This document shows, piece by piece, positions 2,438-62,691 of a stretch of DNA of 64,000 bases. Each line of letters begins with the position of its first letter. The first letter of the stretch is position 1. The translations under genes were made by a program, and so were the position numbers. Source of the DNA: a candidate division WOR-3 bacterium (lineage in GTDB: Bacteria; Hydrothermota; Hydrothermia; LBFQ01; DSFT01); NCBI GenBank assembly GCA_039802865.1, contig JBDRXL010000003.1:15085-79084 (forward strand), given 5' to 3'. The notes beneath the pieces were generated by a model. It saw nothing but the letters and a program-made list of their open reading frames with translations. It did not search any database and was not told where the DNA came from.

Positions 2438-2448
2438 AAAATTTTAAA
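2438..2448 (-). promoter_or_regulatory. TTTAAAATTTT element (putative -10, leaderless) for rpsO-pnp
   Basis: Minus strand CCTTTAAAATTTTCGG-ATG, no SD. Confidence 0.7.
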
Positions 2449-2482
2449 GGATAACCCTTACTTGATACTTTTAATTTTATCC

Positions 2483-2493
2483 TTTAAAATTTT
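2483..2493 (+). promoter_or_regulatory. TTTAAAATTTT element for PqqD-family gene
   Basis: CCTTTAAAATTTTGGACT-ATG. Confidence 0.7.
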
Positions 2494-2498
2494 GGACT

Positions 2499-2825
2499 AT
2501 GACCAGAAGAACGTTTTTAAAAATAGTAGCAATTGGGGGGCTCTTTGGTTTTGCTCTAAAAGGAAACCTCTTTGCCAATGCATATCCTAAGAAGTCCATA
2601 GAATATGTAAGGGAAAGTTCAGATGGTTATGAATTAGTTTTATCAGATGGTTCTACTTTATCTGTAAATGAAACTGGACTTTATGTAATAGGGAGGTTAA
2701 AGGAAGGGGCAAGTGTAAATGAGATAGTAAATGAGCTTTCTAAACTTACAAATAAAGATAAAAGTATTATAAGGGATGATATTGAAGTATTTTTGAATAA
2801 TTTGAGAATTTTGAGAATTATTTAG
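2499..2825 (+). CDS. PqqD/RRE-family protein with twin-arginine signal peptide
   Basis: MTRRTFLK plus hydrophobic stretch; C-terminal VNETGLYVIGRL..GASVNEIVNELS...IRDDIEVFLNNL is typical of the PqqD winged helix. Confidence 0.75.
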   Translation: MTRRTFLKIVAIGGLFGFALKGNLFANAYPKKSIEYVRESSDGYELVLSDGSTLSVNETGLYVIGRLKEGASVNEIVNELSKLTNKDKSIIRDDIEVFLNNLRILRII

Positions 2826-3338: not shown

Positions 3339-3342
3339 TAGC

Positions 3343-3354
3343 TTAAAATTTTAA
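3343..3354. promoter_or_regulatory. palindromic TTAAAATTTTAA shared by divergent HEPN remnant and kdsB
   Basis: Lies in the 21 bp between CAT(3336-3338) and ATG(3360). Confidence 0.6.
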
Positions 3355-3359
3355 ACCTT

Positions 3360-6323: not shown

Positions 6324-6634
6324 AATCCTTTTTTAATACCTACTATATAAGCCAAGAAAATAATAATAAAAATTAAAAATGAAGTTAATTTATTTCCCAG
6401 CATTTTTGAAAATGGAATTAAAATAATAGGCAATAAAGCAAGGATATAATGTAAATTCACATTTCTTTCTCCATTTATAAGAAGAATTATTCCAACTATA
6501 TATTGGAAAAATAGGATGATATCTGCAATTCTTCTAAATTTTTTAGAAATGCCTTCATTAAATAAAGCTAATATAAATGTTATAAAATACATTAAAATAA
6601 GTGTTCCGCCTAAGATATGATGAAGTAAGGACAT
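6320..6634 (-). CDS. small 4-TM membrane protein, unknown function
   Basis: Hydrophobic ORF; upstream TTAAAATTTTCAA-ATG element; stop overlaps panB start. Confidence 0.75.
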   Translation of the reverse strand: MSLLHHILGGTLILMYFITFILALFNEGISKKFRRIADIILFFQYIVGIILLINGERNVNLHYILALLPIILIPFSKMLGNKLTSFLIFIIIFLAYIVGIKKGL

Positions 6635-6643
6635 TTGAAAATT

Positions 6644-7327
6644 TTAAGGCTTAGTATAAAATACACCTAAGGTGCTTGAGCCATAGGCGATAAATGAAAA
6701 CTTATAACCTGGATATGGCTTAAATTTATCTAAAATTGTATAATTTACTAGAAATATTCTTATTTCATATCTACTATCCTTTGTATCAATATAATAACCT
6801 GGAATTACAATGCTGTCAGTTTCTTTTGGTAAAAAATCTGTTTGATAAACAAGTGTAGGGTTTTTACTTTTATTTTCAAAGAAAACAACAAATTTATAAT
6901 CATAAGTTTGAGTATATTTTTGACTTACTTTCCATTTAACTATTAAATCTTGATATAATGATATGGTTTGAGATTCAGGATAGATAATAATAAATGTATC
7001 AGGAAGATAAATCGTTTTAAAATCAATGCTTTCAGAAATATCTCCATAAAATAGCTTTAAGTTATATGGCTTATTCTCATAATAAGGATACTCTAAAACA
7101 TAAAATGGATGAATATAATTTAGTTTTTGGTCATTAAGAAATATACTTGCATCTGATATAACTTGTGAGTTTTTTACATCATATAGCGCAGTATAAATTG
7201 TGCTAAATCCTGCTTGAGAATCTTTATAGAAAATCCCATATAAACTTATATCATAATTTGAACTTGACTTTTTACAAGATATAAAGAAGACAAGAAAAAT
7301 TGTTAAAAAAATTAAAGTCCTTTTCAT
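6644..7327 (-). CDS. putative lipoprotein
   Basis: MKR-hydrophobic-FISC lipobox; ISDASIFLND resembles the neighbouring gene. Confidence 0.75.
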   Translation of the reverse strand: MKRTLIFLTIFLVFFISCKKSSSNYDISLYGIFYKDSQAGFSTIYTALYDVKNSQVISDASIFLNDQKLNYIHPFYVLEYPYYENKPYNLKLFYGDISESIDFKTIYLPDTFIIIYPESQTISLYQDLIVKWKVSQKYTQTYDYKFVVFFENKSKNPTLVYQTDFLPKETDSIVIPGYYIDTKDSRYEIRIFLVNYTILDKFKPYPGYKFSFIAYGSSTLGVFYTKP

Positions 7328-8543: not shown

Positions 8544-8546
8544 AGT

Positions 8547-8560
8547 TTTAAAATTTTAAA
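8547..8560 (-). promoter_or_regulatory. TTTAAAATTTTAAA element for lipoprotein cluster
   Basis: Directly upstream of the proposed start. Confidence 0.6.
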
Positions 8561-8792
8561 GCATTAGATACCGACTTTAAAGTGAAGGAGAAATTTGAGA
8601 ACAGGGACTTCCACCTCTTCCCATTAAAATGTTCTAAAATAAAATCATGAAAATTAAATCCTCACGATTCTAAATTTTTATTACTTGTGAAAGAATAATC
8701 TTCAAATAGGGCACCCATCACCTTAAAATTAAGCAAATAGAGAGGTCTTTTTTAAAAACAACAAGTTAAGTTTTCAATAATTTTAAACTCAC

Positions 8793-8806
8793 TTTAAAAT
8801 TTTAAA
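8793..8806 (+). promoter_or_regulatory. TTTAAAATTTTAAA element for rtcB
   Basis: CTTTAAAATTTTAAACATT-ATG. Confidence 0.65.
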
Positions 8807-8810
8807 CATT

Positions 8811-10259: not shown

Positions 10260-10586
10260 CTATATATTAAATCCAAATGTTCTTAAAACTTCTCTCCCTT
10301 CATCGGTTATTCTATCAAGTGTCCAAGGGGGATCAAATGTAAATTCTACTTCAACATCACTAACACCTTCCAATTGCATTAATTTATCTTTTATTTCAAA
10401 AGCGATGCTATCTCCAATTGGACAATGAGGAGCGGTTAAAGTCATTAAAATATAAATTTTTCCATCTTCTCTTATTTCAAGTCCATATATCAACCCCAAA
10501 TCCACTATATTTACAGGAATTTCTGGGTCATAAACAGTTTTAAGAACCTCAATTACCTCATCTCTTGAAATTTTTGCTTTTGCCAT
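10260..10586 (-). CDS. SufT/MIP18 (DUF59) Fe-S cluster assembly protein
   Basis: VYDPEIPVNIVDLGLIY, MTLTAPHCP, FDPPW. Confidence 0.92.
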   Translation of the reverse strand: MAKAKISRDEVIEVLKTVYDPEIPVNIVDLGLIYGLEIREDGKIYILMTLTAPHCPIGDSIAFEIKDKLMQLEGVSDVEVEFTFDPPWTLDRITDEGREVLRTFGFNI

Positions 10587-10588
10587 AA

Positions 10589-10617
10589 TTTAAAATTTTA
10601 AAGCCCTTTAAAATTTT
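10589..10617. promoter_or_regulatory. two back-to-back TTTAAAATTTT elements for the divergent DUF59 gene and pepA
   Basis: 34-bp spacer holds copies at 10589-10602 and 10607-10617, each 3 nt or less from a start codon. Confidence 0.7.
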
Positions 10618-10620
10618 CGT

Positions 10621-11931
10621 ATGATTGAAATAAAAACTTTAAAGAGATTTGAAGATTTGGGTTTTGGTGCAATTTTTGAGCCTGCGGATATAGAATCTGA
10701 CTATAATTTTAAATCTCCAAATATCTTTCTTATAAAGTATGATAATGCAAGGAGTTATGCTCAAAGGATTTCAAAAATTGTAAAGGATTTTAAATTTGAC
10801 AAAGTTCTCGTAAATTTAAAAAATAAAGATGATATTTCTTTTTTTATTGAAGAGTTATATTTACAACATTATTCATTTGATAAGTATAAAACAAAAACAA
10901 ATAAATTGAATGTAAGTTATTATGTAATTTTTGATGAAGAAAAAAATTTTAATATTCAAAAAATAATAAGTGAGGGCGTAAATTATACAAGAGATTTAGT
11001 AAATGAACCACCAAATAGAATATATCCTGAAACATTAAAAGATGAAGCTTTAAAGTTAAGCAAAAATTATAATTTAAGTGTAGAAGTATTTAATAGGGAG
11101 CAGTTAGAGAAATTAGGATTTAATGCATTTTTAGCAGTTGCAAGTGGTTCAGATAAAGAACCTTATTTTGTTCATCTTTCATATAAAAGTGGAAATCCAA
11201 AATTAAAGTTAGCAATAGTAGGAAAATCCTTAACATTTGATAGTGGGGGATTGAACATAAAAACTTATGAAGGAATGGTAGATATGAAGATAGATATGGC
11301 AGGTTCTGCTATTATTTTAGGATTATTCAAAATAATTGGGGAGTTAAAATTAAATGATATTGAAGTTCATGGATTTTTTGCTAGTTGCGAAAATATGCCA
11401 TCTGGTAAAGCAATGAAACCGGGAGATGTTGTAAAAGCATATAATGGGAAGACTATTGAGATATTAAATACAGATGCAGAAGGAAGATTAACCTTAGCGG
11501 ATGCTCTTTCTTATGTGTCAGAAAATTATTCTCATTTAGATTATATAATTGATTTTGCAACACTTACAGGGGCTATTGTAGTAGCACTTGGTGAATATAG
11601 AGCTGGTGTTTTTACACCAAATAAGGAACTTTATGAGAAAATTGAATATTATGGAAATTTAGCTAATGAGTATTATTGGTTAATGCCCTTAGATGAAAAT
11701 ATTGCAAAGAAATTAAAGAGTAAAGTGGCGGATATTAAAAATACAGGAGATAGATGGGGTGGGGCAATTTTTGCTGCTTTGTTTTTAAGAGAATTTTTAA
11801 AAGATCCTAATAAATGGGCTCATATTGATATTGCTGGTGTTGCTTATAATAATGAACTTGGAGCAACCGGTTTTGGTGTAAGAACAATAATTTATTGGAT
11901 ACTTGATAAAATTAAATATCAGAATATGTGA
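10621..11931 (+). CDS. pepA: leucyl aminopeptidase (M17)
   Basis: VGKSLTFDSGG, MKIDMAG, NTDAEGRL, WAHIDIAG. Confidence 0.95.
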   Translation: MIEIKTLKRFEDLGFGAIFEPADIESDYNFKSPNIFLIKYDNARSYAQRISKIVKDFKFDKVLVNLKNKDDISFFIEELYLQHYSFDKYKTKTNKLNVSYYVIFDEEKNFNIQKIISEGVNYTRDLVNEPPNRIYPETLKDEALKLSKNYNLSVEVFNREQLEKLGFNAFLAVASGSDKEPYFVHLSYKSGNPKLKLAIVGKSLTFDSGGLNIKTYEGMVDMKIDMAGSAIILGLFKIIGELKLNDIEVHGFFASCENMPSGKAMKPGDVVKAYNGKTIEILNTDAEGRLTLADALSYVSENYSHLDYIIDFATLTGAIVVALGEYRAGVFTPNKELYEKIEYYGNLANEYYWLMPLDENIAKKLKSKVADIKNTGDRWGGAIFAALFLREFLKDPNKWAHIDIAGVAYNNELGATGFGVRTIIYWILDKIKYQNM

Positions 11932-13162
11932 TTTTTCCATCTTTCATTGTAAGAACAATTTTTCCTTTAAATTTCCAATTTATAAAGGGTGAATTTTTAC
12001 TCTTTGATAAAATTAAATTTTCACTAAAAATCCATTCCTTACTTTCATCAAATAAAATCAAATTTGCTCTATAACCTTCTTTAATTTCTCCAACATTCTT
12101 TAACTTTAAAAATTTTATTGGAAATTTAACAAATTTTTCAATGATAAAGTTTAAATCAAAACCTCTTTTAATAGCTTCATTATATACTACATTAAAAGCA
12201 GTTTGAAGTCCAATTACTCCTCTTTCTCCTTCTGTAAAGTCCAATTTACTTTCAAATTCATGGGGTGCATGGTCTGTTGCAATAGCATCAATTGTTCCAT
12301 CTTTTAAACCTTCCCAAAGGGCTTCAATATCTTCCTTTGACCTTAAAGGTGGATACATTTTAAAGTTTGGTGAATAATCATTAGCTTTAATATAACTATA
12401 ATTTAGAACTAAGTGATGTGGTGTTGTATCTGCAGTAATTTTAGCACCAAGCTTTTTAAAATATCTTATAATTTCAACAGATAGCTTTGAACTAATATGG
12501 GCAAAGTGAATCCATCCACCTGTTTCAAGTGCTAATATGCAATCTCTTGCTATAATGCTTGCCTCTGAACTTTCAGGTATTCCAATCAATCCATCTCTTA
12601 AACTTTCAAATCCCCAACCTGTTGAATAATTTAAAGATAGCTTTGTATCTTCTGGATGTTGAATAATAGGAAGATTAAACATTTTAAGATAAATTAAAGC
12701 ATTCCTTAAAACATTTGTATTTAATATACAATTTCCATCATCTGAAAAGCCTATTGCCCCTGCTTTATATAATAAATAATATTCTGCCATTTCATTCCCT
12801 TCTCTTTTCTTTGTAGCACAAGCTACTGGAAATATATCTACAAGTCCAACTTCTTTTCCTCTTTGAATTTGATATTTTACTAATTCTGGACTATCCGTAG
12901 GTGGATTTGTATTTGGCATTGTGCAAACTGCCCAAAATCCTCCAAAACTTGCACTTTTACTTCCGCTTTCAATATCTTCCTTATATTCAAATCCTGGTTC
13001 CCTAAAATGAGCGTGTAAATCTATAAAAGCGGGAAGAATTTTAAGTCCATCTGCATTTATAACCTTATCTACTTGCTTTGAAACTTTTCCAATTTCCTTA
13101 ATAATTCCATCTTCTATAAGGATATCCCCCTTATCTGTATTTTTAATAAGAATTGTCTTCAA
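11912..13162 (-). CDS. pyrC: dihydroorotase
   Basis: DLHAHFREPG, MPNTNP, KMYPPLR, ATDHAPH; own element at 13168-13177 inside the upstream gene. Confidence 0.93.
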   Translation of the reverse strand: MKTILIKNTDKGDILIEDGIIKEIGKVSKQVDKVINADGLKILPAFIDLHAHFREPGFEYKEDIESGSKSASFGGFWAVCTMPNTNPPTDSPELVKYQIQRGKEVGLVDIFPVACATKKREGNEMAEYYLLYKAGAIGFSDDGNCILNTNVLRNALIYLKMFNLPIIQHPEDTKLSLNYSTGWGFESLRDGLIGIPESSEASIIARDCILALETGGWIHFAHISSKLSVEIIRYFKKLGAKITADTTPHHLVLNYSYIKANDYSPNFKMYPPLRSKEDIEALWEGLKDGTIDAIATDHAPHEFESKLDFTEGERGVIGLQTAFNVVYNEAIKRGFDLNFIIEKFVKFPIKFLKLKNVGEIKEGYRANLILFDESKEWIFSENLILSKSKNSPFINWKFKGKIVLTMKDGKITYSDI

Positions 13163-13859
13163 TGTTGAAAATTTTAAGGGCTTTTACCTTAATTTTATTT
13201 TTTAAATCTGGTTTTATTATAAATGCTTTTGAATATGCTTCACATTCTGTTGCATTCTCACATATTACAAGCACTGTTAAATTTTTCTTTATTGGTTTTG
13301 ATGTTCTTGGGTCATAAATATGATATTTATTTTCTTTAATTGTTGAAGAGATAGAAATTGCCTCATTAAAAATTTCAAATTCTCCAAATTCTTCACTATA
13401 AAGCTTTAATTTATAATTTCTTGAATAAATTGAACTACTTCCAAAATTAATATAAAATGTATCTATTTTAAAGCTTAGAAGGATATCTCTTACTTTATCT
13501 ACAACATAACCTTTTACAATTCCTCCCAAATCAATTTTTAATCCCTTTGGAAAATACCAAACTTTATCAGAAATTCTTATAGGAAATAAATTTTTTGACT
13601 TATAAAATGGATTAAATGTGCTATCTGTAATTTCAATATAGTATGAACTCAATTTTAAAATTTCATCAGTTTCATCTTCAACAGCAATTGTATCACCATT
13701 CGCTTCAAAATTCTTGTAAAACTTATACCATATACTATTTAAATAATTAGCATATTTAAATGCTGAATCTACTGCTATTTGTGAAATTGGATTATTCTCT
13801 ATAATACCAATTTTTAAGATACTTCCCATTATAAATTGCGCCCTTATGAGATATTCCAT
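13143..13859 (-). CDS. apbE: FAD:protein FMN transferase, ApbE family (short)
   Basis: FIMGS, TDSTFNP, IDLGGIVKGYVVD, HIYDPRT. Confidence 0.8.
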   Translation of the reverse strand: MEYLIRAQFIMGSILKIGIIENNPISQIAVDSAFKYANYLNSIWYKFYKNFEANGDTIAVEDETDEILKLSSYYIEITDSTFNPFYKSKNLFPIRISDKVWYFPKGLKIDLGGIVKGYVVDKVRDILLSFKIDTFYINFGSSSIYSRNYKLKLYSEEFGEFEIFNEAISISSTIKENKYHIYDPRTSKPIKKNLTVLVICENATECEAYSKAFIIKPDLKNKIKVKALKIFNIEDNSY

Positions 13860-15874: not shown

Positions 15875-17064
15875 CTATCTACTTCACCAAGCACAATATC
15901 AATTGTTCCAATTAAAGCTACAAAATCCGCTATTAAATGTCCTGGTGCTATCTCTTCAAGGGCTTGTAAGTTTATAAAGCTTGGTGGTCTTATTCTAAAT
16001 CTATAAGGCTTTGAAGAGCCATCTGATACTATATAAAATCCAATTTCTCCTTTTGGACCTTCAACTGCTGCATAAACTTCACCTTCTGGCACTAAAAATC
16101 CTTCACTCATAATTTTAAAATGATGTATTAGATATTCAATTTGTGAATATAAAATTTTCTTTGGTGGTGGAACAATTTTATAATCATCAATTAAAACATC
16201 TCCATCAGGAATTTTTTCAATAGCTTGCTTAATTATTCTACAACTTTGTCTCATTTCTTCCATCCTTACTAAAAATCTATCATATGTATCTCCATTTTTA
16301 CCAATAGGTATTTCAAAATCAAATTCTGGATAAACAGAATAAGGCTCATCTTTTCTTAAATCCTTTTTTACACCACTTCCTCTTAATAATGGTCCTGTTA
16401 ATGATAAGTTTATTGCTAATTCCTTTGGAATAACACCAATACCAACTGTCCTTTGTTTAAAAATAGGATTTTCTGCTACTAAATCCATAAGCTCTGGCCA
16501 AATTTTCCTTTCAAATTCATCTGCCCATTTATAAACCTTTTCAAGCCAACCATCTGGGCAATCTGCTGCAACTCCACCAAATCTAAAAAATGTATTATTC
16601 ATCCTTTGACCTGAAATCTCTTCTAATAAATCGTAAATTTTTTCTCTTTCTCTAAATGCATGTAAGAAAAATGTCCAAGCTCCAATATCCATAACATGTG
16701 TTCCAACGCCTACTAAATGACTTGCTATTCTTGATAGTTCTGCCAAAATAACCCTTAGATATTCTGCTCTTTTTGGAATTTTATTTTCAATGCCAAGTAA
16801 TTTTTCAACAGCTCTTACATATGCAAAGTTATTTGAAAGTGGAGCTAAATAATCTAATCTATCAGTATATATTAGCATTTGATAATAATTTTTATCTTCA
16901 CCAAGTTTTTCAGTTCCTCTATGTAAATATCCAAGCTTACATTTTGCCTTTACAATTCTTTCTCCATCAAGTGTTAAAACTACCCTCAAAACACCATGCG
17001 TTGCAGGATGTTGTGGTCCTACATTAAGTTCAATATAATTTTCCTCTTTTGTTATAATTTCCAT
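15871..17064 (-). CDS. nuoD: NADH-quinone oxidoreductase subunit D
   Basis: GPQHPATHGVLR, GYLHRGTEK, DRLDY, EGPKGE, DIVLGEVDR. Confidence 0.97.
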   Translation of the reverse strand: MEIITKEENYIELNVGPQHPATHGVLRVVLTLDGERIVKAKCKLGYLHRGTEKLGEDKNYYQMLIYTDRLDYLAPLSNNFAYVRAVEKLLGIENKIPKRAEYLRVILAELSRIASHLVGVGTHVMDIGAWTFFLHAFREREKIYDLLEEISGQRMNNTFFRFGGVAADCPDGWLEKVYKWADEFERKIWPELMDLVAENPIFKQRTVGIGVIPKELAINLSLTGPLLRGSGVKKDLRKDEPYSVYPEFDFEIPIGKNGDTYDRFLVRMEEMRQSCRIIKQAIEKIPDGDVLIDDYKIVPPPKKILYSQIEYLIHHFKIMSEGFLVPEGEVYAAVEGPKGEIGFYIVSDGSSKPYRFRIRPPSFINLQALEEIAPGHLIADFVALIGTIDIVLGEVDR

Positions 17065-17068
17065 AGTG

Positions 17069-17079
17069 AAAATTTTAAA
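17069..17079 (-). promoter_or_regulatory. TTTAAAATTTT element for nuoD unit
   Basis: GCTTTAAAATTTTCACT-ATG. Confidence 0.7.
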
Positions 17080-17089
17080 GCAAGAAAAT

Positions 17090-17403: not shown

Positions 17404-18774
17404 TTATTTGACATAGTTCAATTGAAAATTTATGCTAAAAGCGATTGGTAAAGAGTTTTCTTGAAAGCTATAAATATAATTTTTAAATGTGTTTTTAATT
17501 AAATTATGTGCATTATTATAAAAACTAATTTTTGAACCAAAGCTAAAAAGAAAGCTACCTGTTGGAACAAGCACATTAAAAAATAAAGAATGATAATTTA
17601 GTAAATTGTTTTTTGTGTAAATATATCCATAGTTAGAAAGTGTTTTGGCATAAAATTTATGCATTAAAGAAAAACCTCCATATAAATTATTTAAAGGCTT
17701 TTGACCTAAAAATAAGCTTATTGTTAAGAAGTTAATTTTAAAATACTTATAAAATTCGGCAATTATACTTGAAGGAATTTTATAAGAAAACTCATAAGAA
17801 TTCGTATAAGTTGTATCTTTATAATTAAAGAAGAGATAAACAATGGCATAATTTACAATTTCAGTTGTATCGCCATTTTTAATAGCATAAAGATAATTTT
17901 CACTATATTTAATAGAATCTACATTATTTGAAAGGCTTGTGATATATCTAATTTCATCTGTAATTTTACCTTTTATTGTAAGTTCTGGTGAATAGCCTAA
18001 TTTTAATAAAGTTGTAGGATTGTAATAAGTAAGATAAAAGCTAAAATGAGATGTGTTATCTACCTCAAATGTGCGCTTTAATCCAAATGGATTATTTATA
18101 TAAGGAATAGCGTATAAATAAGCAAGCCATTTATAGTTTGTATAATTTAAAATTTTAACTTTTGGACTTGATGAAAGATAATAATTTTTGGCATTATATT
18201 CAATAAAATTGCCATTTTGATTAAAAAATCTTGCTTCAAGAGATAATAAAAAGCTTTTATAACCAATTTCAAAAGTTATTGGATTTGAGAAGATAGAGAA
18301 TTTTCCTGATGAAGTTAAATTTAAATTTCTATAAAGAGAATCAAAATTATATTCAACAATAATACTTCTATCAAGTCCTTGAACATCACTTGGATATAAA
18401 GTATCTATAATTTTCCCAAATATAGTATCCCATGGTTTTATATCTCTTTCTTGAGTAGTTTCAATATAAATCATTTCATTAAAATGATATTTCAAATCCA
18501 TTTGAAACTCATTAATTTTAAAACCCATACTTATTGCATTAAATCCCCCTCTTTGACCAAATACTTGCCTTTGCTCAATAAATAAACTATCACTTAATAT
18601 CCCATTTGGATTATAATTTAGTTTAATTAAGGAAGTTTTAGATTCCTCTGAATTTAAAGAAATAGAAAAGTAAAACTTCTTAAAAGCATATGGATTTTTA
18701 ATAGGAAATACAAGCTCATAAATTTGAGGTGTTTTAAAAAGTGTGTTTAAAGTGTTTATAATTAAGAAAAGCAT
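17404..18774 (-). CDS. hypothetical exported/outer-membrane protein
   Basis: Aromatic- and beta-rich; C-terminus FSINFQLNYVK; very short hydrophobic N-terminus MLFLII. Confidence 0.65.
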   Translation of the reverse strand: MLFLIINTLNTLFKTPQIYELVFPIKNPYAFKKFYFSISLNSEESKTSLIKLNYNPNGILSDSLFIEQRQVFGQRGGFNAISMGFKINEFQMDLKYHFNEMIYIETTQERDIKPWDTIFGKIIDTLYPSDVQGLDRSIIVEYNFDSLYRNLNLTSSGKFSIFSNPITFEIGYKSFLLSLEARFFNQNGNFIEYNAKNYYLSSSPKVKILNYTNYKWLAYLYAIPYINNPFGLKRTFEVDNTSHFSFYLTYYNPTTLLKLGYSPELTIKGKITDEIRYITSLSNNVDSIKYSENYLYAIKNGDTTEIVNYAIVYLFFNYKDTTYTNSYEFSYKIPSSIIAEFYKYFKINFLTISLFLGQKPLNNLYGGFSLMHKFYAKTLSNYGYIYTKNNLLNYHSLFFNVLVPTGSFLFSFGSKISFYNNAHNLIKNTFKNYIYSFQENSLPIAFSINFQLNYVK

Positions 18775-18785
18775 AGTTTGAAATT

Positions 18786-21202: not shown

Positions 21203-21205
21203 AAT

Positions 21206-47351: not shown

Positions 47352-47625
47352 ATTTCTTTAATTCGTTTGTTTCTTTTTCCTTTAAAATGATAATATATAT
47401 TCCTTGTTTTGGTAGTTGATATTTATAAACATTTGTTCCTACGTTTGTAATGCTATAAAGTATTCTACCAGAATTATCATAAATGCTTAATATGGCTGGT
47501 TTGTCGCTATGAGCATATATAGTAGCACTTTGATTTTTTGTAATAACAGTTGATGCAACATCAAGCTTTATTTGAGCATGTGCTAGGCTTGTTAAAATTA
47601 AAAGTGTTAAAATAAACTTTCTCAT
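47332..47625 (-). CDS. small secreted protein, T9SS type A sorting-domain-like
   Basis: Canonical Sec signal (MRKF...AHA|Q); LSIYDNSGRIL...LPKQGIYIIIL. Confidence 0.6.
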   Translation of the reverse strand: MRKFILTLLILTSLAHAQIKLDVASTVITKNQSATIYAHSDKPAILSIYDNSGRILYSITNVGTNVYKYQLPKQGIYIIILKEKETNELKKFILVLP

Positions 47626-47630
47626 AGTCC

Positions 47631-47681
47631 AAAATTTTAAAGCATACTTTTGAATAATTGCAATTAAAACTTTAAAATTTT
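47631..47681. promoter_or_regulatory. back-to-back elements for the CTD-like gene and sucC
   Basis: 47631-47641 (minus) and 47671-47681 (plus). Confidence 0.7.
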
Positions 47682-47685
47682 CAGT

Positions 47686-48825
47686 ATGAAGATTCTTGAA
47701 TATAAAGCAAAAGAGATCTTCAAAAAATACAATATGCCGATACCTGATGGTTATATATGCAAAAGTATAGATGATGTGAGAGATGCCTTAAGTAAGTTGA
47801 AATTTCCTGTTGTAATAAAAGCCCAGGTTCCAGTTGGTGGAAGAGGGAAAGCAGGAGGGGTTAAATTGGCAAATAATTATGAAGAAGCGATTGAAAAGTC
47901 AAAAAATATATTAAGTATGACCATTAAATCTATTCCTGTAAAGAAAATTTTAATAGCAAATGCAGTTAATATAAAAAAGGAATTTTATATTGGAATTACT
48001 CTTGATAGGAAAATAAACAAAAATGTAATAATAACTTCAAAGGAAGGTGGAGTAGATATTGAGGAAGTAGCAAAAGTAAATCCATCTGCCATAATTAAAC
48101 ATCCTATTGATCCATTTTTAGGATTAAGGGATTATGAAGCAAGAGAAATTGCTTATCAATTAGTAGATAGTAAAGAAATAGCAAATGAAATTTCAAAAAT
48201 CATTAAAAATTTATATAATGCTTATATGGATTTAGAAGCTCAACTTGCAGAAATTAATCCTCTTGTAATTGATGATGAAAATAAAGTATGGGTTGTAGAT
48301 GCCAAAATTCTAACAGATGATAATGCTCTATTTAGAAAAAGCTTTATTGAAGAATATAGGGATATAGATTATGAGAATTTTGAGGAAATTGAAGCAAAAA
48401 AATATGGACTTTCATTTATTAAGCTTGATGGAAATATAGGAAATATGGTAAATGGGGCAGGACTTGCTATGGCTACAATGGATGTCATTAAGTATTATGG
48501 CGGGGAACCTGCTAATTTCTTAGATGTAGGTGGCTCATCTAGTGTAGAAAAAACTAAAAAAGCTATGGAAATTATATTATCTGATAAGAATGTAAAAAGT
48601 GTTTTTGTAAATATATTTGGAGGTATTACAAGAACAGATGATATAGCCCAAGGAATTATATCCGCATTTAAGGAAATAGAAATTAGAGTTCCAGTCGTAA
48701 TAAGACTTACGGGAACAAATGAAGAAATTGCTAAAAGAATGTTAAGAGAAAGTGGTTTAAATTTAATAATTGTAGATAGTATGTCAGAAGGAGCAAAAAA
48801 AGCGGTTGAGTTAGCAAATAAGTGA
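47686..48825 (+). CDS. sucC: succinate--CoA ligase subunit beta
   Basis: KAQVPVGGRGKAGGV, EINPL, NGAGLAMATMD, PANFLDVGG. Confidence 0.97.
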   Translation: MKILEYKAKEIFKKYNMPIPDGYICKSIDDVRDALSKLKFPVVIKAQVPVGGRGKAGGVKLANNYEEAIEKSKNILSMTIKSIPVKKILIANAVNIKKEFYIGITLDRKINKNVIITSKEGGVDIEEVAKVNPSAIIKHPIDPFLGLRDYEAREIAYQLVDSKEIANEISKIIKNLYNAYMDLEAQLAEINPLVIDDENKVWVVDAKILTDDNALFRKSFIEEYRDIDYENFEEIEAKKYGLSFIKLDGNIGNMVNGAGLAMATMDVIKYYGGEPANFLDVGGSSSVEKTKKAMEIILSDKNVKSVFVNIFGGITRTDDIAQGIISAFKEIEIRVPVVIRLTGTNEEIAKRMLRESGLNLIIVDSMSEGAKKAVELANK

Positions 48826-50870: not shown

Positions 50871-50872
50871 AG

Positions 50873-50888
50873 CTTTAAAATTTTAAAG
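50873..50888. promoter_or_regulatory. perfect 16-bp palindrome CTTTAAAATTTTAAAG, putative bidirectional promoter
   Basis: Fills 16 of the 18 bp between two divergent ATGs. Confidence 0.75.
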
Positions 50889-51629
50889 ATGGCGTTTTTT
50901 CTCCTTTCACAAATTGTTTTTAAATCTGAAAGTGTTAACATTTATATAAAAGATATAGGAAATATAACAGGCATTCAAGAATATTATATATCTCAAACTA
51001 AGTATAGAATAAATGAAAAACTAAATTTAAATAGGGAAAAGTTAGTAAGTAAATTTATGGAAAAATATTATGCGGGTAATAAGTCCATTATTATAGATCT
51101 GGATAATGATAGTGTTTATAGAATTGATAATTATGAGAAAAGTTATTATGTTTATAAATTGGATAATTACATAAGACCTATTGAAAAAGTTGAAGAAAAG
51201 AAAAAGGATGTAAAAGCAAAATTAAGTATTAAAAATTTAGGTGATTGTAATTATGAAATTAAGTTTAGTTTTGAAGGAGATAGTATCATTTCAAAAATTT
51301 GTTATAAAGAAATTGAAACAAATCAAGTTGAAAATCAATTCTTTTTAAATTATAATAAAAAAATTAAAGTGGATATAGATAGTAGAATTTTTCAAAAGCT
51401 TGGAGTATTTTCAATAAATAATCCATTTGTAAAATTTTTAATGAGTGATGTTGTAAAGAAATCTGATTTGGAAAAGATATTAAAAATTAAGGGTTATCCA
51501 TATACCATAGAGCTTAGATACTATAATGATACAAGCTTAGTTTATAAGTATTTTTCAAAGCTTATAAGAGTTGAGAATAGAGGGGACGTAAATGTTTTTA
51601 AGATTGATACTACTTATAATCGCAAGTAG
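50889..51629 (+). CDS. hypothetical, probably exported protein
   Basis: MAFFLLSQ N-terminus; IIDLDNDSVYRIDNYEKSYY resembles DUF4412-type proteins. Confidence 0.65.
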   Translation: MAFFLLSQIVFKSESVNIYIKDIGNITGIQEYYISQTKYRINEKLNLNREKLVSKFMEKYYAGNKSIIIDLDNDSVYRIDNYEKSYYVYKLDNYIRPIEKVEEKKKDVKAKLSIKNLGDCNYEIKFSFEGDSIISKICYKEIETNQVENQFFLNYNKKIKVDIDSRIFQKLGVFSINNPFVKFLMSDVVKKSDLEKILKIKGYPYTIELRYYNDTSLVYKYFSKLIRVENRGDVNVFKIDTTYNRK

Positions 51630-52757: not shown

Positions 52758-52815
52758 AATTATTAAAAGTTTAAAGTTTAAAAAAATTTCCTACCTTTTT
52801 AGTCAAAAATTATGC

Positions 52816-52826
52816 TTTAAAATTTT
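52816..52826 (+). promoter_or_regulatory. TTTAAAATTTT element for suf unit
   Basis: GCTTTAAAATTTTCTAT-ATG. Confidence 0.7.
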
Positions 52827-52830
52827 CTAT

Positions 52831-53598
52831 ATGGCTGAGAAACTTATCATTAAAAACTTAAGAGTTTCCATAGAAGGAAAAGAGATTTTAAAGGGAATTT
52901 CCTTAGATGTTGAAAGAGGGAAAATTTGTGCGATTATGGGTCCAAATGGAAGTGGAAAATCTACACTTGCATACGCTATTATGGGACATCCAAAATATGA
53001 AATTATTGAAGGTGAAGTGATTTATAAAGATAAAAACATATTAGAGCTTTCTCCTGATGAAAGAGCAAAATTGGGAATATTTTTGGCGTTTCAACATCCA
53101 TATGAAATAGATGGGGTTAGACTTTCTACATTTTTGTGGCAAAGTTATGTTAAAAAATTTGAAAATTCAGATAAAAAACCAAATATAATGGAATTTAGAA
53201 AACAATTAAAAAATTCACTTTTAAGTATGGGAATGGATGAAAATATGATAGATAGATTTTTAAATGTTGGATTTTCAGGTGGTGAAAAAAAGAGAACAGA
53301 AATTGTTCAAATGTTAATTTTAAAACCAGAAATTGCAGTATTAGATGAGATTGATTCTGGTCTTGATATTGATGCTATTAGAATTGTTTCGGAAAATGTT
53401 AATAAGCTTGTAAGAGAGAATAATACGGGAATTTTGATAATTACACACTATCAAAGAATTTTAAATTATATTAAGCCTGATTATGTTTATGTTTTAGTTG
53501 ATGGTAAAATTGTAGATAGTGGGGATTATAGATTAGCAGAGGAGCTTGAAAGAGAAGGATATAGGAAGTATGGTATAGAAGAGGAGGTTAAGATATGA
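52831..53598 (+). CDS. sufC: Fe-S cluster assembly ATPase SufC
   Basis: MGPNGSGKSTL, GFSGGEKKR, LDEIDSGLDID, ITHYQR. Confidence 0.97.
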   Translation: MAEKLIIKNLRVSIEGKEILKGISLDVERGKICAIMGPNGSGKSTLAYAIMGHPKYEIIEGEVIYKDKNILELSPDERAKLGIFLAFQHPYEIDGVRLSTFLWQSYVKKFENSDKKPNIMEFRKQLKNSLLSMGMDENMIDRFLNVGFSGGEKKRTEIVQMLILKPEIAVLDEIDSGLDIDAIRIVSENVNKLVRENNTGILIITHYQRILNYIKPDYVYVLVDGKIVDSGDYRLAEELEREGYRKYGIEEEVKI

Positions 53599-58958: not shown

Positions 58959-58970
58959 AGTTCCAAAATT

Positions 58971-60029
58971 TTAAAGCCTGGAAATTTTTGAAAGCTGATA
59001 TAAGATTCCAAGTAAGAAAGAATTAACAATAAAGGAAGAACCTCCAAAACTAATAAAAGGCATAGGTATTCCAGTTGGTGGAAAAAGACCTACAACAACA
59101 GAGATATGTCCGAGTGTATAAATTGCTATATTTATTGAAATAGCAAAAGCCAATGTTGAAAATTCAATATTATTTTTATATAATTTTAGTGCTATTAAAA
59201 TTCCCCTAAATACAAGAAATAAAATTAAAATACTTACAAAAACTGCAAATATAAATCCCATTTCTTCTCCAATTATAGAGAATATAAAATCTGTATGAGC
59301 ATCAGGAAGATATAAGAATTTTGCTTTCCCTTCCCCAATACCAACCCCGAGTAATCCTCCATGAGCTAAACCTACTTTTGATTGTAAAACCTGGTAAGCT
59401 TCTGTAGATGAAAATCGTTTAATAGCATGGGGGAAGGAAAAAATTCCTAAAATTCCAAATGATAAAAGAATTATTGAACTTGTTAATATTGAAATAAAGT
59501 GAGAACCAACATAAAATGCACTAATTAAAAAAATTAATGAAATCATACCTGCTGTTGATAAATTTGGCTCAATCGCTATTAAGAAAACACCAAATAGTAT
59601 AACAAAAAACATCAATAAATAACTCTTAAATTCTAAAAGGTATCTTGAAAAAAAAGAAACTAAAAGAATTGTTGAAAGTCTAAAAATATCAGAGACCTGA
59701 ATGTTTATAATAAATAAGTTTAACCATCTTTTAGCGCCTCTAATTTCAGGAGCGATAGGTGATGGAAGTATTAAAACAAGAATTAATAACAATATAGAAA
59801 TAGCAAATAAATAAAGTGTATATTTTTTTAGCTCATTTAAGTTAATAAAATATCCAAGTATAAAGAAAAAAATCCCAATTAAAACTTTGCTAATGTGAAT
59901 TAACATATAATAAAAATCAGGTCTATTACTAACATATGCAAGATAAGAGCTTGAAGTATAAACAATAATTGTGCTAATTGTAATTAAAACTAAGTAAATA
60001 AAAAGGATATAAATATCGTTTCTAATCAT
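58971..60029 (-). CDS. ftsW: SEDS family peptidoglycan polymerase FtsW
   Basis: GAKRW, EPN, YLPDAHTDFIFSIIGEE, PTGIPMPFISFGGSS. Confidence 0.88.
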   Translation of the reverse strand: MIRNDIYILFIYLVLITISTIIVYTSSSYLAYVSNRPDFYYMLIHISKVLIGIFFFILGYFINLNELKKYTLYLFAISILLLILVLILPSPIAPEIRGAKRWLNLFIINIQVSDIFRLSTILLVSFFSRYLLEFKSYLLMFFVILFGVFLIAIEPNLSTAGMISLIFLISAFYVGSHFISILTSSIILLSFGILGIFSFPHAIKRFSSTEAYQVLQSKVGLAHGGLLGVGIGEGKAKFLYLPDAHTDFIFSIIGEEMGFIFAVFVSILILFLVFRGILIALKLYKNNIEFSTLAFAISINIAIYTLGHISVVVGLFPPTGIPMPFISFGGSSFIVNSFLLGILYQLSKISRL

Positions 60030-60804
60030 AGTTTTTCAGAATTTCTAAAAGCTCCTCAAAGTTATTTATTACATATTGAACAGAATTTTTAACAGCTTTA
60101 TGTGATTTTACAGGAGCTATGGATATATTTGATATTTTAAACATTTCCAAATCATTTATATAATCTCCTATGCTTACAATAAAGTTATAATTAAGAGTAT
60201 TTTTTATGACTTTTAATGCCTCTCCTTTATTTACATATTTATTTGAAATATCCATTACATAAAGTCCCTTCTTCTTACCACTTGGATATATATAATATCC
60301 AGAATTTCTAAAATTCTTTAAAAACATTTCAACTTCTTTTAAAACTTCAAAGTTATAACTTGCCAATACAATTTTATAAATGTTAAAGTTTGAAATTTCA
60401 TCTAAGTAAATTTTCTGATTAATGCGCCAGTGTTTTAGTGTAATTCCAAGTGAAAGCATATTTACATTTAAAATTGTTTTTTCTTTATAAAATATATTTA
60501 TAGCGCAATTTTTAAATTTCTTAATAAAATTTAAAATTTCAAAAACTTCTCTTTTTTCAATATAACTACTAAAATATTCTTTTCCATTTGTATCACAAAC
60601 AAGAGCTCCATCAAAACATATAAAAGGAACTTCTATATTTAATAATTTTGCAAAATAAAGAGCACTCAAATATGACCTTCCTGTTGCTATTGTAATATCA
60701 AATTTTTCTCTAAGTTGTTCAATTGCTTTTAATTTTTCATTATCTATTCTATCTTTCTTATCAATTAGCGTTCCATCTAAATCCAAAATTAAGAGCCTTT
60801 TCAA
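60022..60804 (-). CDS. Cof-type HAD-IIB hydrolase
   Basis: DLDGTL, ATGR, NKG, GDYINDLEM. Confidence 0.92.
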   Translation of the reverse strand: MKRLLILDLDGTLIDKKDRIDNEKLKAIEQLREKFDITIATGRSYLSALYFAKLLNIEVPFICFDGALVCDTNGKEYFSSYIEKREVFEILNFIKKFKNCAINIFYKEKTILNVNMLSLGITLKHWRINQKIYLDEISNFNIYKIVLASYNFEVLKEVEMFLKNFRNSGYYIYPSGKKKGLYVMDISNKYVNKGEALKVIKNTLNYNFIVSIGDYINDLEMFKISNISIAPVKSHKAVKNSVQYVINNFEELLEILKNYD

Positions 60805-62627
60805 AATGTATAGTCCAGTTGAAATTTTATATTTCTTGAAGGTAAAGGCATTGAGTTTGGATCTAAGCTCCTATATGCTACAACATTATTTATATTATTA
60901 CCTATGATTGAAAATTTTAAATTCTCATTATATAAAAAGCTTATACCAACATTTAACATTAAATAAGATGGTCTCTCTGCTTCAATAGGACTAACTTCCT
61001 CACCTTTTTTTGCAAAACTATAAATTGAATTTATATCTAATAAAAATTTTCTAAATTTATAATTTATTCCAAGAAATATCCTTGAAGGTGGAATATCCGA
61101 AAGCTCTATTTCCTTTCCTTCTAATTCACCCTTTCCTTCCATAAATGCATAATTTAATGTAAATAATAAATTATTTAATTTATATCTTGTTCCTAAGCTA
61201 ATACCAAAAACATTTGAAATACCATTTAGGTTTTTATATGTAAATATGGTATCTCCACTTGAAGTTAATGTATCTTCTTTTGTCATTTCTATAAAATCCC
61301 ATATAGCACTATAAAATCCTCCGATTTCAAAACTTAAAAATTCCTTATTGACTCCAATTATAATCTCATTATTTAAAGCTTTTTCTGGAGATAATTTCTC
61401 ATTACCTATTACAAATCCCCTTGTTCTTAAAACGTAACTTTTTGTTTCTACAAGCTCAGGAAATCTATATGCAAATTGAATATTTCCCCTTGTATAAAGA
61501 TAATTGTTAATTTTATAGTTTAATCCAATATGTCCAGATGGTGAAAAATTAAAATTGTTTTCTTGATTGTAAATTCCAATTCTTAATGCATAAGATAATA
61601 ATAATTTATTAAGTTTATTTGAATAAAAAGCGGTTATTCCAAAATTATTATATCCTGCATTTTTTAGCTCATCATATTGAAATACAGAGTTTTTGTAAAT
61701 TTTTGAATTTACATTTATCCTTCCAAAGTAATCAAATATTAGAAATTTATAATTATAGGTAAGTCCTAAGTCATAACCATTATAGACCGCATCACTTGTA
61801 TCAGTTTTTATAGTCCTACTTATAAAATTATAATAGTGAAAACCAAATGTCAAGTTTTCAGAAGTGGTAATAAAATAAATTTGTTCATCTTTTGGATATA
61901 GTCTAATTGCAGAACTAAACATTGCCCTATATAAATCAATTATTCTAAAATACCCAAGCTTAAATTCATAATTTTTATACTTATAAGCACTTAAAACATT
62001 AAATTTTTTAAAACTTGAATTATTTGATCTTATAAATGAGTTAGTCCATAATTTTTCTTTTAATGAAGTATCTGGATAAAAGTAATTTTCTGAGCTATTA
62101 AATCCACCTGCTATATAAAAATTATTAATAGGTTTTAATCCAGCAAATACTTTATAATTATTTCCATTTGTTCCATAACTTATATCAATTTCATTTTTTG
62201 AATTTACTCCTCTTAAATAATAAATTACACTACCACCAATTGCTCCAGAACCAAATGATGAAGCTCCTGAACCTTCAAGAACCTCTATGCCTTCAAACAT
62301 ATCAGATATTGAAAAATAAGCAGATGGTCCAATTTCTCTATCTGTTGCTATTCTATAACCATCTAAAAGGGCAATTGTTCTATATCTTGAAAATCCCCTT
62401 ATTGCAGGAACAGCACCATGGGCATCTTTCCCTTCAAAAGCAATTGTTGGAATTTTTATAAGCTTTTCTTCTATTTTATCAAAACTACTTATTAGATTTT
62501 GAAATTCATTCTCAGATATATAGTAAGAGGTTTTCGTATTTTCAACTTTCTTATAGTATTTAGCTTTTACTTCAACTTCGGGCAAAGTATAAGTAGTATC
62601 TGAATTTAAAAATAATAAGCTAATCAT
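60801..62627 (-). CDS. TonB-dependent receptor
   Basis: LPEVEV TonB-box-like, IRGF, IEVLEG..ASSFGSGAIGG plug, NEKLSPEK, C-terminal RNIKFQLDYTF. Confidence 0.92.
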   Translation of the reverse strand: MISLLFLNSDTTYTLPEVEVKAKYYKKVENTKTSYYISENEFQNLISSFDKIEEKLIKIPTIAFEGKDAHGAVPAIRGFSRYRTIALLDGYRIATDREIGPSAYFSISDMFEGIEVLEGSGASSFGSGAIGGSVIYYLRGVNSKNEIDISYGTNGNNYKVFAGLKPINNFYIAGGFNSSENYFYPDTSLKEKLWTNSFIRSNNSSFKKFNVLSAYKYKNYEFKLGYFRIIDLYRAMFSSAIRLYPKDEQIYFITTSENLTFGFHYYNFISRTIKTDTSDAVYNGYDLGLTYNYKFLIFDYFGRINVNSKIYKNSVFQYDELKNAGYNNFGITAFYSNKLNKLLLSYALRIGIYNQENNFNFSPSGHIGLNYKINNYLYTRGNIQFAYRFPELVETKSYVLRTRGFVIGNEKLSPEKALNNEIIIGVNKEFLSFEIGGFYSAIWDFIEMTKEDTLTSSGDTIFTYKNLNGISNVFGISLGTRYKLNNLLFTLNYAFMEGKGELEGKEIELSDIPPSRIFLGINYKFRKFLLDINSIYSFAKKGEEVSPIEAERPSYLMLNVGISFLYNENLKFSIIGNNINNVVAYRSLDPNSMPLPSRNIKFQLDYTF

Positions 62628-62632
62628 AATTG

Positions 62633-62691
62633 AAAATTTTAAAGTTATAAATAGTTGCCCTTGAAAGTTAAATAAATAAGCTTTAAAATTT
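62633..62691. promoter_or_regulatory. divergent elements for the TonB receptor (62633-62643) and the S74 gene (62682-62691)
   Basis: The plus-strand copy is followed by a 27-nt leader containing AGGAGG. Confidence 0.65.

Follow-up and report, generated by a model that had tools for sequence, protein, structure and literature searches.

The window analysed here is a stretch of 64,000 nucleotides (nt) from a candidate division WOR-3 bacterium of the phylum Hydrothermota (contig JBDRXL010000003.1, positions 15,085 to 79,084; G000:C3:15085-79084 in our numbering). The assembly (GCA_039802865.1, genome G000) comprises 1.64 Mb in 54 contigs, is 92% complete, and has a guanine plus cytosine (GC) content of 27.7%. 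Protein genes were taken as non-overlapping open reading frames (ORFs) of at least 90 amino acids (aa) in translation table 11, giving 1559 ORFs that cover 93.6% of the DNA. A first-pass annotation of the window had noticed a near-palindromic element around the hexamer TAAAAT just before the start codons of first-in-unit genes, and had read it as a promoter made of little more than a -10 region, with leaderless messenger RNAs (mRNAs). The analysis below points the same way; this motif is very probably the housekeeping promoter of the organism, and first-in-unit mRNAs would be leaderless or nearly so.

Sites were scored with a position weight matrix (PWM) of 20 columns and 18.2 bits in total, which was refined, without fixing the hexamer, on divergent genes, whose upstream neighbour lies on the other strand and which are hence necessarily first in their unit. 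Distances are counted from the first T of TAAAAT (T1) or from the hexamer end. The window holds 44 sites of more than 10 bits, and at 30 of these an ATG, GTG or TTG opening an ORF of at least 74 aa lies 12-17 nt after T1. On the plus strand, sites precede the genes for a PqqD-like protein of 108 aa (2480..2499, hexamer 2485-2490, ATG 2499), a 243-aa protein (3339..3358, hexamer 3344-3349, ATG 3360; the minus reading, at 17.9 bits, has only an 18-aa ORF), RtcB (8790..8809, ATG 8811, 482 aa), a 333-aa protein (21195..21214, TTG 21215), prolyl-tRNA synthetase (ProRS; 22217..22236, ATG 22235, 560 aa), where the element is kept before the orthologues in five relatives, a 74-aa ORF (30502..30521, GTG 30522), and an ABC ATPase (52813..52832, ATG 52831, 255 aa). 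The variant TAACAT stands at 30710..30729 (ATG 30730, 511 aa) and 46042..46061 (ATG 46062, 429 aa). Sites on the minus strand include 2432..2451 (20.2 bits, hexamer 2446-2441, ATG 2434 at 12 nt from T1, 90-aa ORF), 13162..13181 (TTG 13162, 416 aa), 17063..17082 (ATG 17064, 397 aa), 18774..18793 (variant TAAAATTTC, ATG 18774, 456 aa), 42372..42391 (ATG 42373, 318 aa), 52759..52778 (variant TAAACT, GTG 52757, 263 aa), 58959..58978 (TTG 58958, 112 aa), and 62627..62646 (ATG 62627, 608 aa). At 6632..6651 (-), upstream of ATG 6634 (104 aa), the TAA of the hexamer is also the stop codon of the upstream gene at 6644-7327, and at 39380..39399 (-; ATG 39381, 529 aa) the promoter lies within the 3' end of the upstream gene, because only 3 nt separate the two genes. 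The strongest site of the window, at 8544..8563 (-), scores 24.1 bits, and the TTG called for it at 8519 lies 39 nt after T1.

Several intergenic regions carry the element in both directions. Two back-to-back copies fill the 34-nt region at 10586..10623, where the minus hexamer (10600-10595) leads to ATG 10586 and the plus hexamer (10609-10614) to ATG 10621 of an M17 peptidase. The same arrangement is found at 20507..20540 (minus hexamer 20521-20516 to ATG 20508; plus hexamer 20529-20534, within TAAAATTATCA, to ATG 20540), and wider divergent pairs stand at 27204..27254 (minus hexamer 27218-27213 to ATG 27206; plus hexamer 27240-27245 to ATG 27253 of succinyl-CoA ligase alpha) and 47625..47687 (minus hexamer 47639-47634 to ATG 47625; plus hexamer 47673-47678 to ATG 47686 of succinyl-CoA ligase beta). 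A near-palindrome at 43463..43482 reads on the plus strand toward ATG 43485 (486 aa), and on the minus strand, at 22.0 bits, toward TTG 43457, 20 nt after T1. At 50871..50890 a single palindrome, AGCTTTAAAATTTTAAAG, constitutes the whole 18-nt region between ATG 50870 (-, 86 aa) and ATG 50889 (+, 246 aa), and by its layout appears to be a bidirectional promoter. Among the copies that read on both strands, this one is truly palindromic, while those at 3339 (-), 8544 (+), 8790 (-) and 10586 (+) are mirror readings of one-sided sites.

With both strands scored, the window contains 32 exact copies of the word TTTAAAATTTT; 100 dinucleotide-preserving shuffles gave a mean of 5.04 (standard deviation 2.36, maximum 11). 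Exact copies are present at 2438 (-), 2483 (+), 3345 (-), 8547 (+)/8550 (-), 8793 (+)/8796 (-), 10589 (+)/10592 (-), 10607 (+), 17069 (-), 20513 (-), 22220 (+), 27210 (-), 30505 (+), 34492 (+), 43466 (+), 47631 (-), 47671 (+), 50874 (+)/50877 (-), 52816 (+), 58965 (-), and 62633 (-), and variants with one mismatch are correctly placed before starts at 3343 (+), 6638 (-), 13168 (-), 18781 (-), 20527 (+), 21198 (+), 27238 (+), 39387 (-) and 42379 (-). All copies listed in the first-pass annotation are thus real, being either exact or one mismatch away. Nine exact copies that it did not list, among them 18146 (+), 30663 (-), 30884 (-), 32221 (-), 43153 (+), 50497 (+), 56991 (-) and 60911 (-), are intragenic or without a downstream gene, and their number is about that expected by chance.

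Genome-wide, the full element reads gCTT-TAAAAT-TTT-(A/C)AA, with about 18 bits over 16-20 nt. In an alignment of 428 sites, the upstream flank has g at a frequency of 0.51 (-4), C at 0.85 (-3), T at 0.84 (-2), and T at 0.94 (-1), and the hexamer is followed by T (0.98), T (0.88), T (0.71), A or C, A (0.74), and A (0.61). The hexamer itself is nearly invariant in the refined PWM (T 0.99, A 0.99, A 0.97, A 0.99, A 0.90, T 0.99), and has the form TANNNT with conserved A2 and T6 that defines a sigma-70-type -10 element. The suggestion of a long, near-invariant -10 region was therefore borne out, except that the conserved element is even longer than had been described, with C at -3 in 85% of the 428 sites.

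The position of the element relative to genes was then tabulated for 1545 ORFs, using the most upstream start codon. T1 falls at -16, -15, -14, -13 or -12 in 41, 102, 77, 91 and 88 ORFs, respectively, compared with a background of only 2-10 ORFs at each position from -60 to -18. The gap between core and start codon is typically 6-10 nt (range 5-11), slightly wider than the 6-9 nt first noted. Sites scoring more than 15 bits number 667 genome-wide, against 26-30 (about 28) in order-3 Markov genomes. The positional enrichment that had been proposed as a check is present and sharp. At 471 of these 667 sites an ATG, GTG or TTG opening an ORF of at least 50 aa lies 11-17 nt after T1 (random positions, 3.5%); 34 others precede genes for transfer RNA (tRNA) or transfer-messenger RNA (tmRNA), 10 open ORFs of 30-49 aa, and 80 fall into a remainder that is mostly intergenic and includes mirror readings of palindromes. 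When genes were sorted by class, and a site of more than 8 bits within 45 nt of the start was counted, 261 of 356 divergent genes carried the element, compared with 23 of 622 internal genes that overlap or abut their upstream neighbour, and 3 of 800 mid-gene control windows. Same-strand genes were intermediate, with 44% at gaps above 20 nt and 38% at gaps of 1-20 nt. The element thus marks genes that are first in their unit, as had been claimed.

Transcription preferentially starts at a purine that follows a pyrimidine, and the start site can be chosen within a window of 6-10 nt. A T stands directly before the start codon in 304 of the 428 motif genes, compared with 470 of 1118 others, and in genes with a 9-nt gap the two bases preceding the ATG are C (67%) and T (86%). 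The T fits the pyrimidine-purine preference, and suggests an adjustment of many promoters by which the A of the ATG becomes the first base transcribed; in another reading, transcription would always begin about 7 nt after the hexamer, giving leaders of 0-4 nt. Leaderless as used here denotes a leader that, from this geometry, would be 0 to about 4 nt long. In SucC and SucD, the Pfam match starts at residue 2 and residue 6, respectively.

The element is not confined to protein genes. Of the RNA genes that Aragorn predicts in the genome, 46 encode tRNAs and one the tmRNA. An exact TAAAAT, usually within gCTTTAAAATTTTcAAACTT, stands before 30 of the tRNA genes, where T1 falls at -13 to -22 relative to the mature 5' end as predicted; four more have a hexamer with one mismatch at -15 to -22, so that 34 of 46 carry the element. 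Nine tRNA genes sit behind another RNA gene in a cluster, and for three the element is absent within 120 nt upstream. Two tRNAs begin 7 nt after the hexamer, so transcription must start there no later than 7 nt downstream of it. The tmRNA has the element at -32. In the window, the hexamer (34494-34499) of the site at 34489..34508 (+; 21.0 bits) ends 62 nt before a bacterial 16S ribosomal RNA (rRNA) gene at 34562-36101 (RF00177, 1490.8 bits), which agrees with the copy first noted at 34492, and one tRNA gene follows (tRNA-Ala, 36174-36246) without a promoter of its own. The GC content of the 16S gene is 61%, compared with 27.7% for the genome, which by an established correlation indicates a thermophile. 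Public RNA runs listed for this stretch are labelled as sediment and hot-spring metatranscriptomes, comprising one that holds 13% of the words of 43001-53000 and three raw-read hot-spring sets grouped with it by study; they are not used here as evidence of habitat or expression.

Some further features of the RNA genes were observed. In the window, the 16S gene is followed only by the tRNA-Ala(CGC) gene (34562-36246) and then by a convergent protein gene, and the rRNA genes appear unlinked, because a 23S gene was not found near the 16S gene. Two tRNA-Phe(GAA) genes on separate contigs (G000:C3:128-201 and G000:C4:14420-14493) have identical 70-nt upstream sequences, which may reflect a real duplication or an assembly repeat. 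At G000:C23:15752-15823 Aragorn reports a tRNA-Asn with the unusual anticodon ATT, with a normal copy of the element at -19.

A -35 consensus was not found, the logo of the 428 sites holding at most 0.08 bit per position from -45 to -7. In a scan of spacings, an exact TTGACA at 17 nt occurred at 4 of 578 sites, and a hexamer with at most one mismatch at 12 of 578, compared with roughly 5-6 at other offsets. The TGn of an extended -10 element is not seen either, since positions -3, -2 and -1 are C (0.85), T (0.84) and T (0.94), with G (0.51) at -4. The part of the first-pass reading that described the promoter as -10 only therefore holds in the sense that no -35 consensus exists, and needs qualifying in that a few promoters do have a TTGACA-like hexamer at 17 nt (in the window, TTGAAA at 62661-62666 lies exactly 17 nt before the hexamer at 62684-62689) and the sigma factor keeps the region that reads it. 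The genome encodes three proteins of the sigma-70 family, of 548, 268 and 283 aa. The 548-aa protein, RpoD (G000:C20:5565-7208; L001:1000-2646, minus), contains YKFSTYATWWIRQAI, and its residues 286-545 align to solved RpoD/SigA chains (E about 1e-86). Inspection of its regions, which had been recommended, showed 1.2, 2, 3 and 4 all to be canonical, with region 1.2, a YATWWIRQAI segment, RIPIHMIET, and an SRERVRQIE helix all present; in region 3.0, RIPxHMIET retains its His and Glu. Loss of region 4 was considered and rejected, as the -35-reading residues are present. Within region 2.4, the T of AI-T-RAIAD is replaced by M (by I in one species) throughout the genus, in contrast to all relatives examined, and families f1 (that of this genome) and f2 have ADH where other families have ADQ or ADN. 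The substituted residues belong to those that we take to recognize position -12; a link between these changes and the C at -3 or the wording TAAAAT is speculation.

With three sigma-70-family genes, and with GCTT and TTT flanks unlike the textbook TGn extended -10, the element could belong to an alternative sigma factor, the 268-aa or 283-aa protein, rather than to the primary one. We consider this very unlikely. The element serves the 16S gene and the majority of tRNA genes, along with housekeeping functions (ProRS and SucCD, for example), and it heads about 70% of divergent units, which is the role of a primary sigma; moreover, its hexamer fits the TANNNT consensus.

Translation signals were examined in the same gene classes. 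Words resembling a Shine-Dalgarno (SD) sequence precede 28 of 356 divergent genes, compared with 211 of 622 internal genes; when an SD core of 5 nt or more was required, the shares were 7% of divergent genes, 27% of internal genes, and 11.7% of random coding windows, and only internal genes show a positional peak, at -14 to -10. The observation that motif-led first genes lack an SD thus extends to the genome. The 16S gene ends in GATCACCTCCTTT and retains the CCTCC anti-SD, as noted before, and rpoD, an internal gene, has AAAAGGAGGT before its ATG in all seven genomes of family f1. One leadered exception occurs in the window (62661..62721, +), where the hexamer at 62684-62689 is followed by a leader of about 22 nt with AAGGAGGT and the ATG at 62719, which places the element about 34 nt upstream of an SD-led gene; a copy before this gene had been noted earlier. 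The product (62719-63120, 133 aa) has Peptidase_S74, an endosialidase chaperone domain, as its only Pfam match (E = 8e-16).

These data bear on whether the element might act in the mRNA, as an A/U-rich ribosome-binding or enhancer signal for translation without SD, on transcripts that start further upstream. Its fixed short distance from start codons, its A/U-rich composition and the rarity of SD on these genes would suit such a role, and bacteria that lack SD and use A-rich upstream signals exist. However, copies also stand before genes whose RNA is never translated, namely those of 34 of the 46 tRNAs, of the tmRNA and of 16S rRNA, so a purely translational signal is ruled out. In addition, only 23 of 622 internal genes have it, some divergent starts are only 15-22 nt apart, too close to hold an upstream promoter, its match to TANNNT includes A2 and T6 of the -10 hexamer, and it also lies about 34 nt before a gene with a strong SD of its own. 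A signal at the mRNA level is accordingly highly improbable.

The compact divergent regions were examined genome-wide. Among 178 divergent pairs, 18 have an intergenic region of 15-22 nt, and none has one of 5-14 nt. These short regions consist mostly of the palindrome (G)CTTTAAAATTTTAAAG(C), whereas pairs 30-38 nt apart mostly carry two copies back-to-back. Since the element is AT-symmetric, divergent pairs can share one palindromic 16-mer or use two adjacent copies, and with 15-22 nt between divergent starts there is no space for another promoter, a leader or an SD. A comparable economy is seen in tandem genes; at 46 of 204 same-strand motif junctions the upstream stop codon is the TAA of the hexamer (6641-6646 in the window, for example), and none of the 204 has an upstream stop codon at any other position from -5 to +6.

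The symmetry also raises the possibility that the element is a dispersed palindromic repeat, or the binding site of a dimeric global DNA-binding protein. Its core, AAAATTTT, equals its own reverse complement, and so does the full 16-mer CTTTAAAATTTTAAAG, a perfect palindrome with 10 copies; the shorter TTTAAAATTTTAAA has 64. Against this, most sites are one-sided and oriented, with a C at -3 and an (A/C)AA at +9 to +11 that are not mirror images; the orientation always follows the downstream gene within a tolerance of 5 nt, and palindromes occur where genes diverge. The logo moreover shows no other promoter-like signal for the roughly 500 units concerned, and we give this explanation hardly any weight. 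An artefact of base composition has still less in its favor and can be dismissed: AT-rich words are common at 27.7% GC, Markov genomes yield about 240 matches above 10 bits, so that weaker intragenic matches are near chance level, and the 189 unpartnered intragenic matches are close to the Markov expectation, but 1090 such matches are found in the genome, the excess above 15 bits, the sharp positional peak, the reversed-word control (54 against 322), the 85% C at -3 in an AT-rich genome and the retention of the core in relatives of 51-53% GC leave no room for it, and the shuffle, positional, reversed-word and Markov controls each refute it.

For comparison we used 272 species-level genomes of the phylum; f1 is represented by seven genomes (G000-G006) in two genera, and its class by 64 genomes of 28-60% GC. 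The 12-mer CTTTAAAATTTT greatly exceeds its reversed control only in the five members of the genus (G000 322/54, G001 201/22, G002 373/92, G003 240/25, G004 386/78). The two genomes of the sister genus have 19 and 18 copies against 2 and 7, and no excess is seen in the other ten families. The 14-mer GCTTTAAAATTTTC has 76, 18, 57, 48 and 41 copies in the genus and at most three per genome in the other 267, so the long motif is genus-specific within this set. Before the ProRS and SucC orthologues, TAAAATTT is found directly upstream of the ATG in three congeners and the two sister-genus genomes (51-53% GC); the three congeners have CTTTAAAATTTTCnnT-ATG, and the two GC-richer genomes cTGTAAAATTTCATCCT-ATG and CCCTATAAAATTTTgCC-ATG. 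In the sister genus (51% GC) the flanks have thus diverged while the core before orthologues was kept.

The layout was surveyed more broadly by scoring TANNNT at -17 to -6 in samples of 40-100 kb per genome. In family f2, the motif was present at 79% of first-like and 7% of internal genes of G009 (41% GC), and at 49% and 29% in G007 (57% GC). The corresponding shares were 38% and 9% in G005 of the sister genus (51% GC), 45% and 4% in G020 (f4), and 4% and 8% in G024 (f8, 60% GC). Promoters of tRNA genes were also compared, and read cCTTTAAAATTT in G005 and cCCTTATAATATCCACTT in G009, in both cases 15-24 nt before the tRNA. In G009 the tRNA genes have AACCtTTCAnCCT-TATAAT-ATCCACTT (loci L111-L115, L160-L189), and protein genes TTTTCA-n4-TAnAAT-t.CC followed by ATG. 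These comparisons suggest that the leaderless layout is at least order-wide, and that an information-rich -10 region with C at -3, abutting the genes, is an order-level trait whose exact wording drifts by lineage. What had been ascribed to this lineage as an unusually long, invariant -10 can therefore be divided: the long wording belongs to the genus, and the layout appears to be shared at least by the order. Separately, G009 shows a conserved TTTCA block 5 nt upstream of the hexamer.

Several observations weigh against reading the element as a promoter of leaderless mRNAs throughout. Gene starts came from a crude longest-ORF caller and not from a trained gene finder. At 72 of the 667 strong sites the next called start is 18-150 nt away, and 95 of 356 divergent genes have no site above 8 bits. 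In the window, no start codon lies 11-17 nt after T1 at 8544..8563 (-), where the unit is probably leadered or its start miscalled, or on the minus strand of 43463..43482. The gap is broad, measuring 6, 7, 8, 9 and 10 nt in 88, 91, 77, 102 and 41 genes; a start at a constant distance from the hexamer would leave many mRNAs with a short leader of 1-4 nt. Even where a tRNA has a longer leader, the (A/C)AA at +9 to +11 and a CT(T) at +13 to +15 stay conserved, which this reading does not account for. Finally, RpoD keeps its -35-reading residues and a few promoters have a -35 at 17 nt, which indicates that the promoter is -35-independent rather than -35-blind.

Despite these points, position, gene class, RNA genes, geometry and conservation all support an extended -10 that serves as nearly the whole promoter for leaderless mRNAs. 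A housekeeping sigma-70-type RNA polymerase would read gCTT-TAAAAT-TTT-(A/C)AA, a -10 hexamer extended by conserved bases on both sides that would nearly always work without a -35, and transcription would begin at the start codon or 0-4 nt before it. If first-in-unit mRNAs are leaderless or nearly so, they would be translated without SD contact, and internal genes of operons would be reached through stop/start overlaps or ordinary SD sites. The same promoter type would drive the tRNA, tmRNA and 16S genes, together with the smaller number of genes that have a leader and an SD. Of this scheme, the motif and its placement, its restriction to certain gene classes, its conservation and the intact sigma factor are shown directly; the precise point at which transcription begins, the assignment of the element to the 548-aa sigma factor, and leaderless initiation of the 70S type are what we infer.

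The survey of relatives also revealed a feature of ribonuclease P (RNase P) in the same family. Neither RNase P RNA (RF00010) nor rnpA (PF00825) was found in any of the seven f1 genomes, which are 87-96% complete, whereas of 24 genomes from eight other families of the class, 24 have RF00010 and 23 rnpA. In a sample of the phylum, RNase P RNA was found in 127 of 151 genomes; family f43 (G264-G270) had an RF00010 match in none of six genomes of 90-97% completeness. All seven f1 genomes carry a PIN_5 (HARP family) gene, which also occurs in families f4, f6 and f8. The copy in G000 (G000:C5, about 74318-74856; L141:1395-1932) matches solved chains annotated as RNA-free ribonuclease P (E = 3e-29). 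Within this copy the reading frame changes at nine consecutive A (L141:1494-1502), so that 47 codons at the N-terminal end (MKIVIDTSVL...) and the 147 that follow lie in different frames. In G001 the HARP match ends short at about the same profile position. The frame break may have arisen in assembly of the homopolymer, mark a site of slippage, or mean that the gene is broken. According to reviews, Aquificaceae are the only group known to have replaced the RNA-based enzyme (PMC10941002, PMC9945441), and a further paper describes an A at tRNA position -1 as a signature of co-evolution with the Aquifex HARP (PMC12439589). No obvious preference for A at -1 was seen by eye, without counting, in the upstream sequences of G000 tRNAs.

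The promoter and RNase P observations can be joined, although tentatively, and we regard the combination as possible rather than likely. Leader-minimal promoters would be order-wide, with mRNAs beginning at the start codon and tRNA leaders of only about 0-10 nt, stop codons placed inside the next hexamer, and divergent regions collapsed to one 16-bp palindrome. Such transcription also occurs in a sister family that has RNase P RNA (G009 is an example), so it may have preceded and permitted the loss of that RNA in f1, which would carry only the HARP-type protein enzyme. The genus-specific 18-bit motif would be the outcome of co-evolution with the replacement of T by M or I in region 2.4 of the sigma factor, while the genome, at high temperature, drifted toward its 28% GC. 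If this is true, f1 would be a bacterial lineage with protein-only RNase P besides Aquificaceae. A family that has lost RNase P RNA and rnpA but kept HARP may interest a wider readership than the promoter itself.

For the genome itself, the element provides an information-rich promoter model for an uncultured thermophilic lineage and fixes about 470 start codons together with the unit structure; gene callers that assume SD will misplace starts here. It also offers a test case for sigma selectivity where DNA melts easily, with about 16 contiguous bases acting independently of a -35 at 28% GC and high temperature. The palindromic 15-22-nt regions and the stop codons inside hexamers show limits of compaction in bacterial genomes.

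Among known systems, archaea have leaderless genes, and Nanoarchaeum has leaderless tRNAs. There, as here, first genes are leaderless and internal genes SD-led, and the promoter lies at a fixed short distance from RNA 5' ends. The archaeal TATA is placed at about -26 to -30 (PMC3160421), unlike the signal described here, which lies 12-16 nt upstream in a bacterium and has the character of a -10 rather than of TATA/BRE. An archaeal TATA/BRE was rejected on this distance and on the bacterial 16S gene.

Promoters of the sigma-70 type that work independently of a -35 include the TGn extended -10 and, in Thermus aquaticus, a -10 combined with a downstream GGGA motif. As in these, extra conserved bases adjoining the hexamer appear to compensate for the missing -35, but the bases differ, being G-C-T-T at -4 to -1 instead of TGn, and TTT downstream instead of GGGA. 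The palindromic regions have a counterpart in the report of Warman et al. (bioRxiv 10.1101/2020.01.31.928960) that symmetry of the -10 makes bacterial promoters bidirectional, with divergent starts 7-25 bp apart, most often 18 bp, which are preferentially used for mRNA production. In both cases -10 elements overlap on opposite strands, which for the 18 of 178 pairs found here is suggested by the geometry of the sequence. The arrangement differs from that reported for Escherichia coli, where the preferred offset is 18 bp, positions 2 and 6 of the two hexamers pair and leaders follow; here the hexamers overlap by 2 bp in a perfect 16-bp palindrome, and the element is the entire 15-22-nt region between two start codons.

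The closest relatives of this promoter are TA-led genes. Leaderless genes with a -10 box directly before the ORF were reportedly described by de Groot and co-workers in 2014. In the survey of Zheng et al. (2011, PMC3160421), TA-led genes, with TANNNT about 12 nt before the start, are given for 207 of 953 bacterial genomes, with average shares of 39% of genes in Deinococcus-Thermus, 19% in Actinobacteria, and 26.5% in two of five Aquificae. In Deinococcus the motif is reported from experiment to be a -10 region that starts leaderless transcripts, and an added -35 boosts it (Zhong et al., 2025, PMC12340547). The system described here resembles those of Deinococcus-Thermus, Actinobacteria and Aquifex in having TANNNT about 12 nt upstream, no SD, a dispensable -35, a restriction to first genes with internal genes served by SD or overlap, and a thermophilic or extremophilic host lineage. 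It differs in that TAAAAT is near-invariant, with both flanks conserved and about 18 bits, while in the TA-led phyla the middle three bases carry little information, and in that the gap is broader (6-10 nt), the element also abuts tRNA genes, and the phylum is another one. Literature searches for such a promoter in thermophilic bacteria yielded only general papers on leaderless genes, and no description of the motif. New, then, are the lineage, the near-invariant wording of 16-20 nt whose flanks are not TGn, the extent to which the layout is compacted, and the equally short distance to tRNA genes; the kind of system, leaderless genes with an abutting -10, is already established in other phyla, and nothing known about it is overturned.

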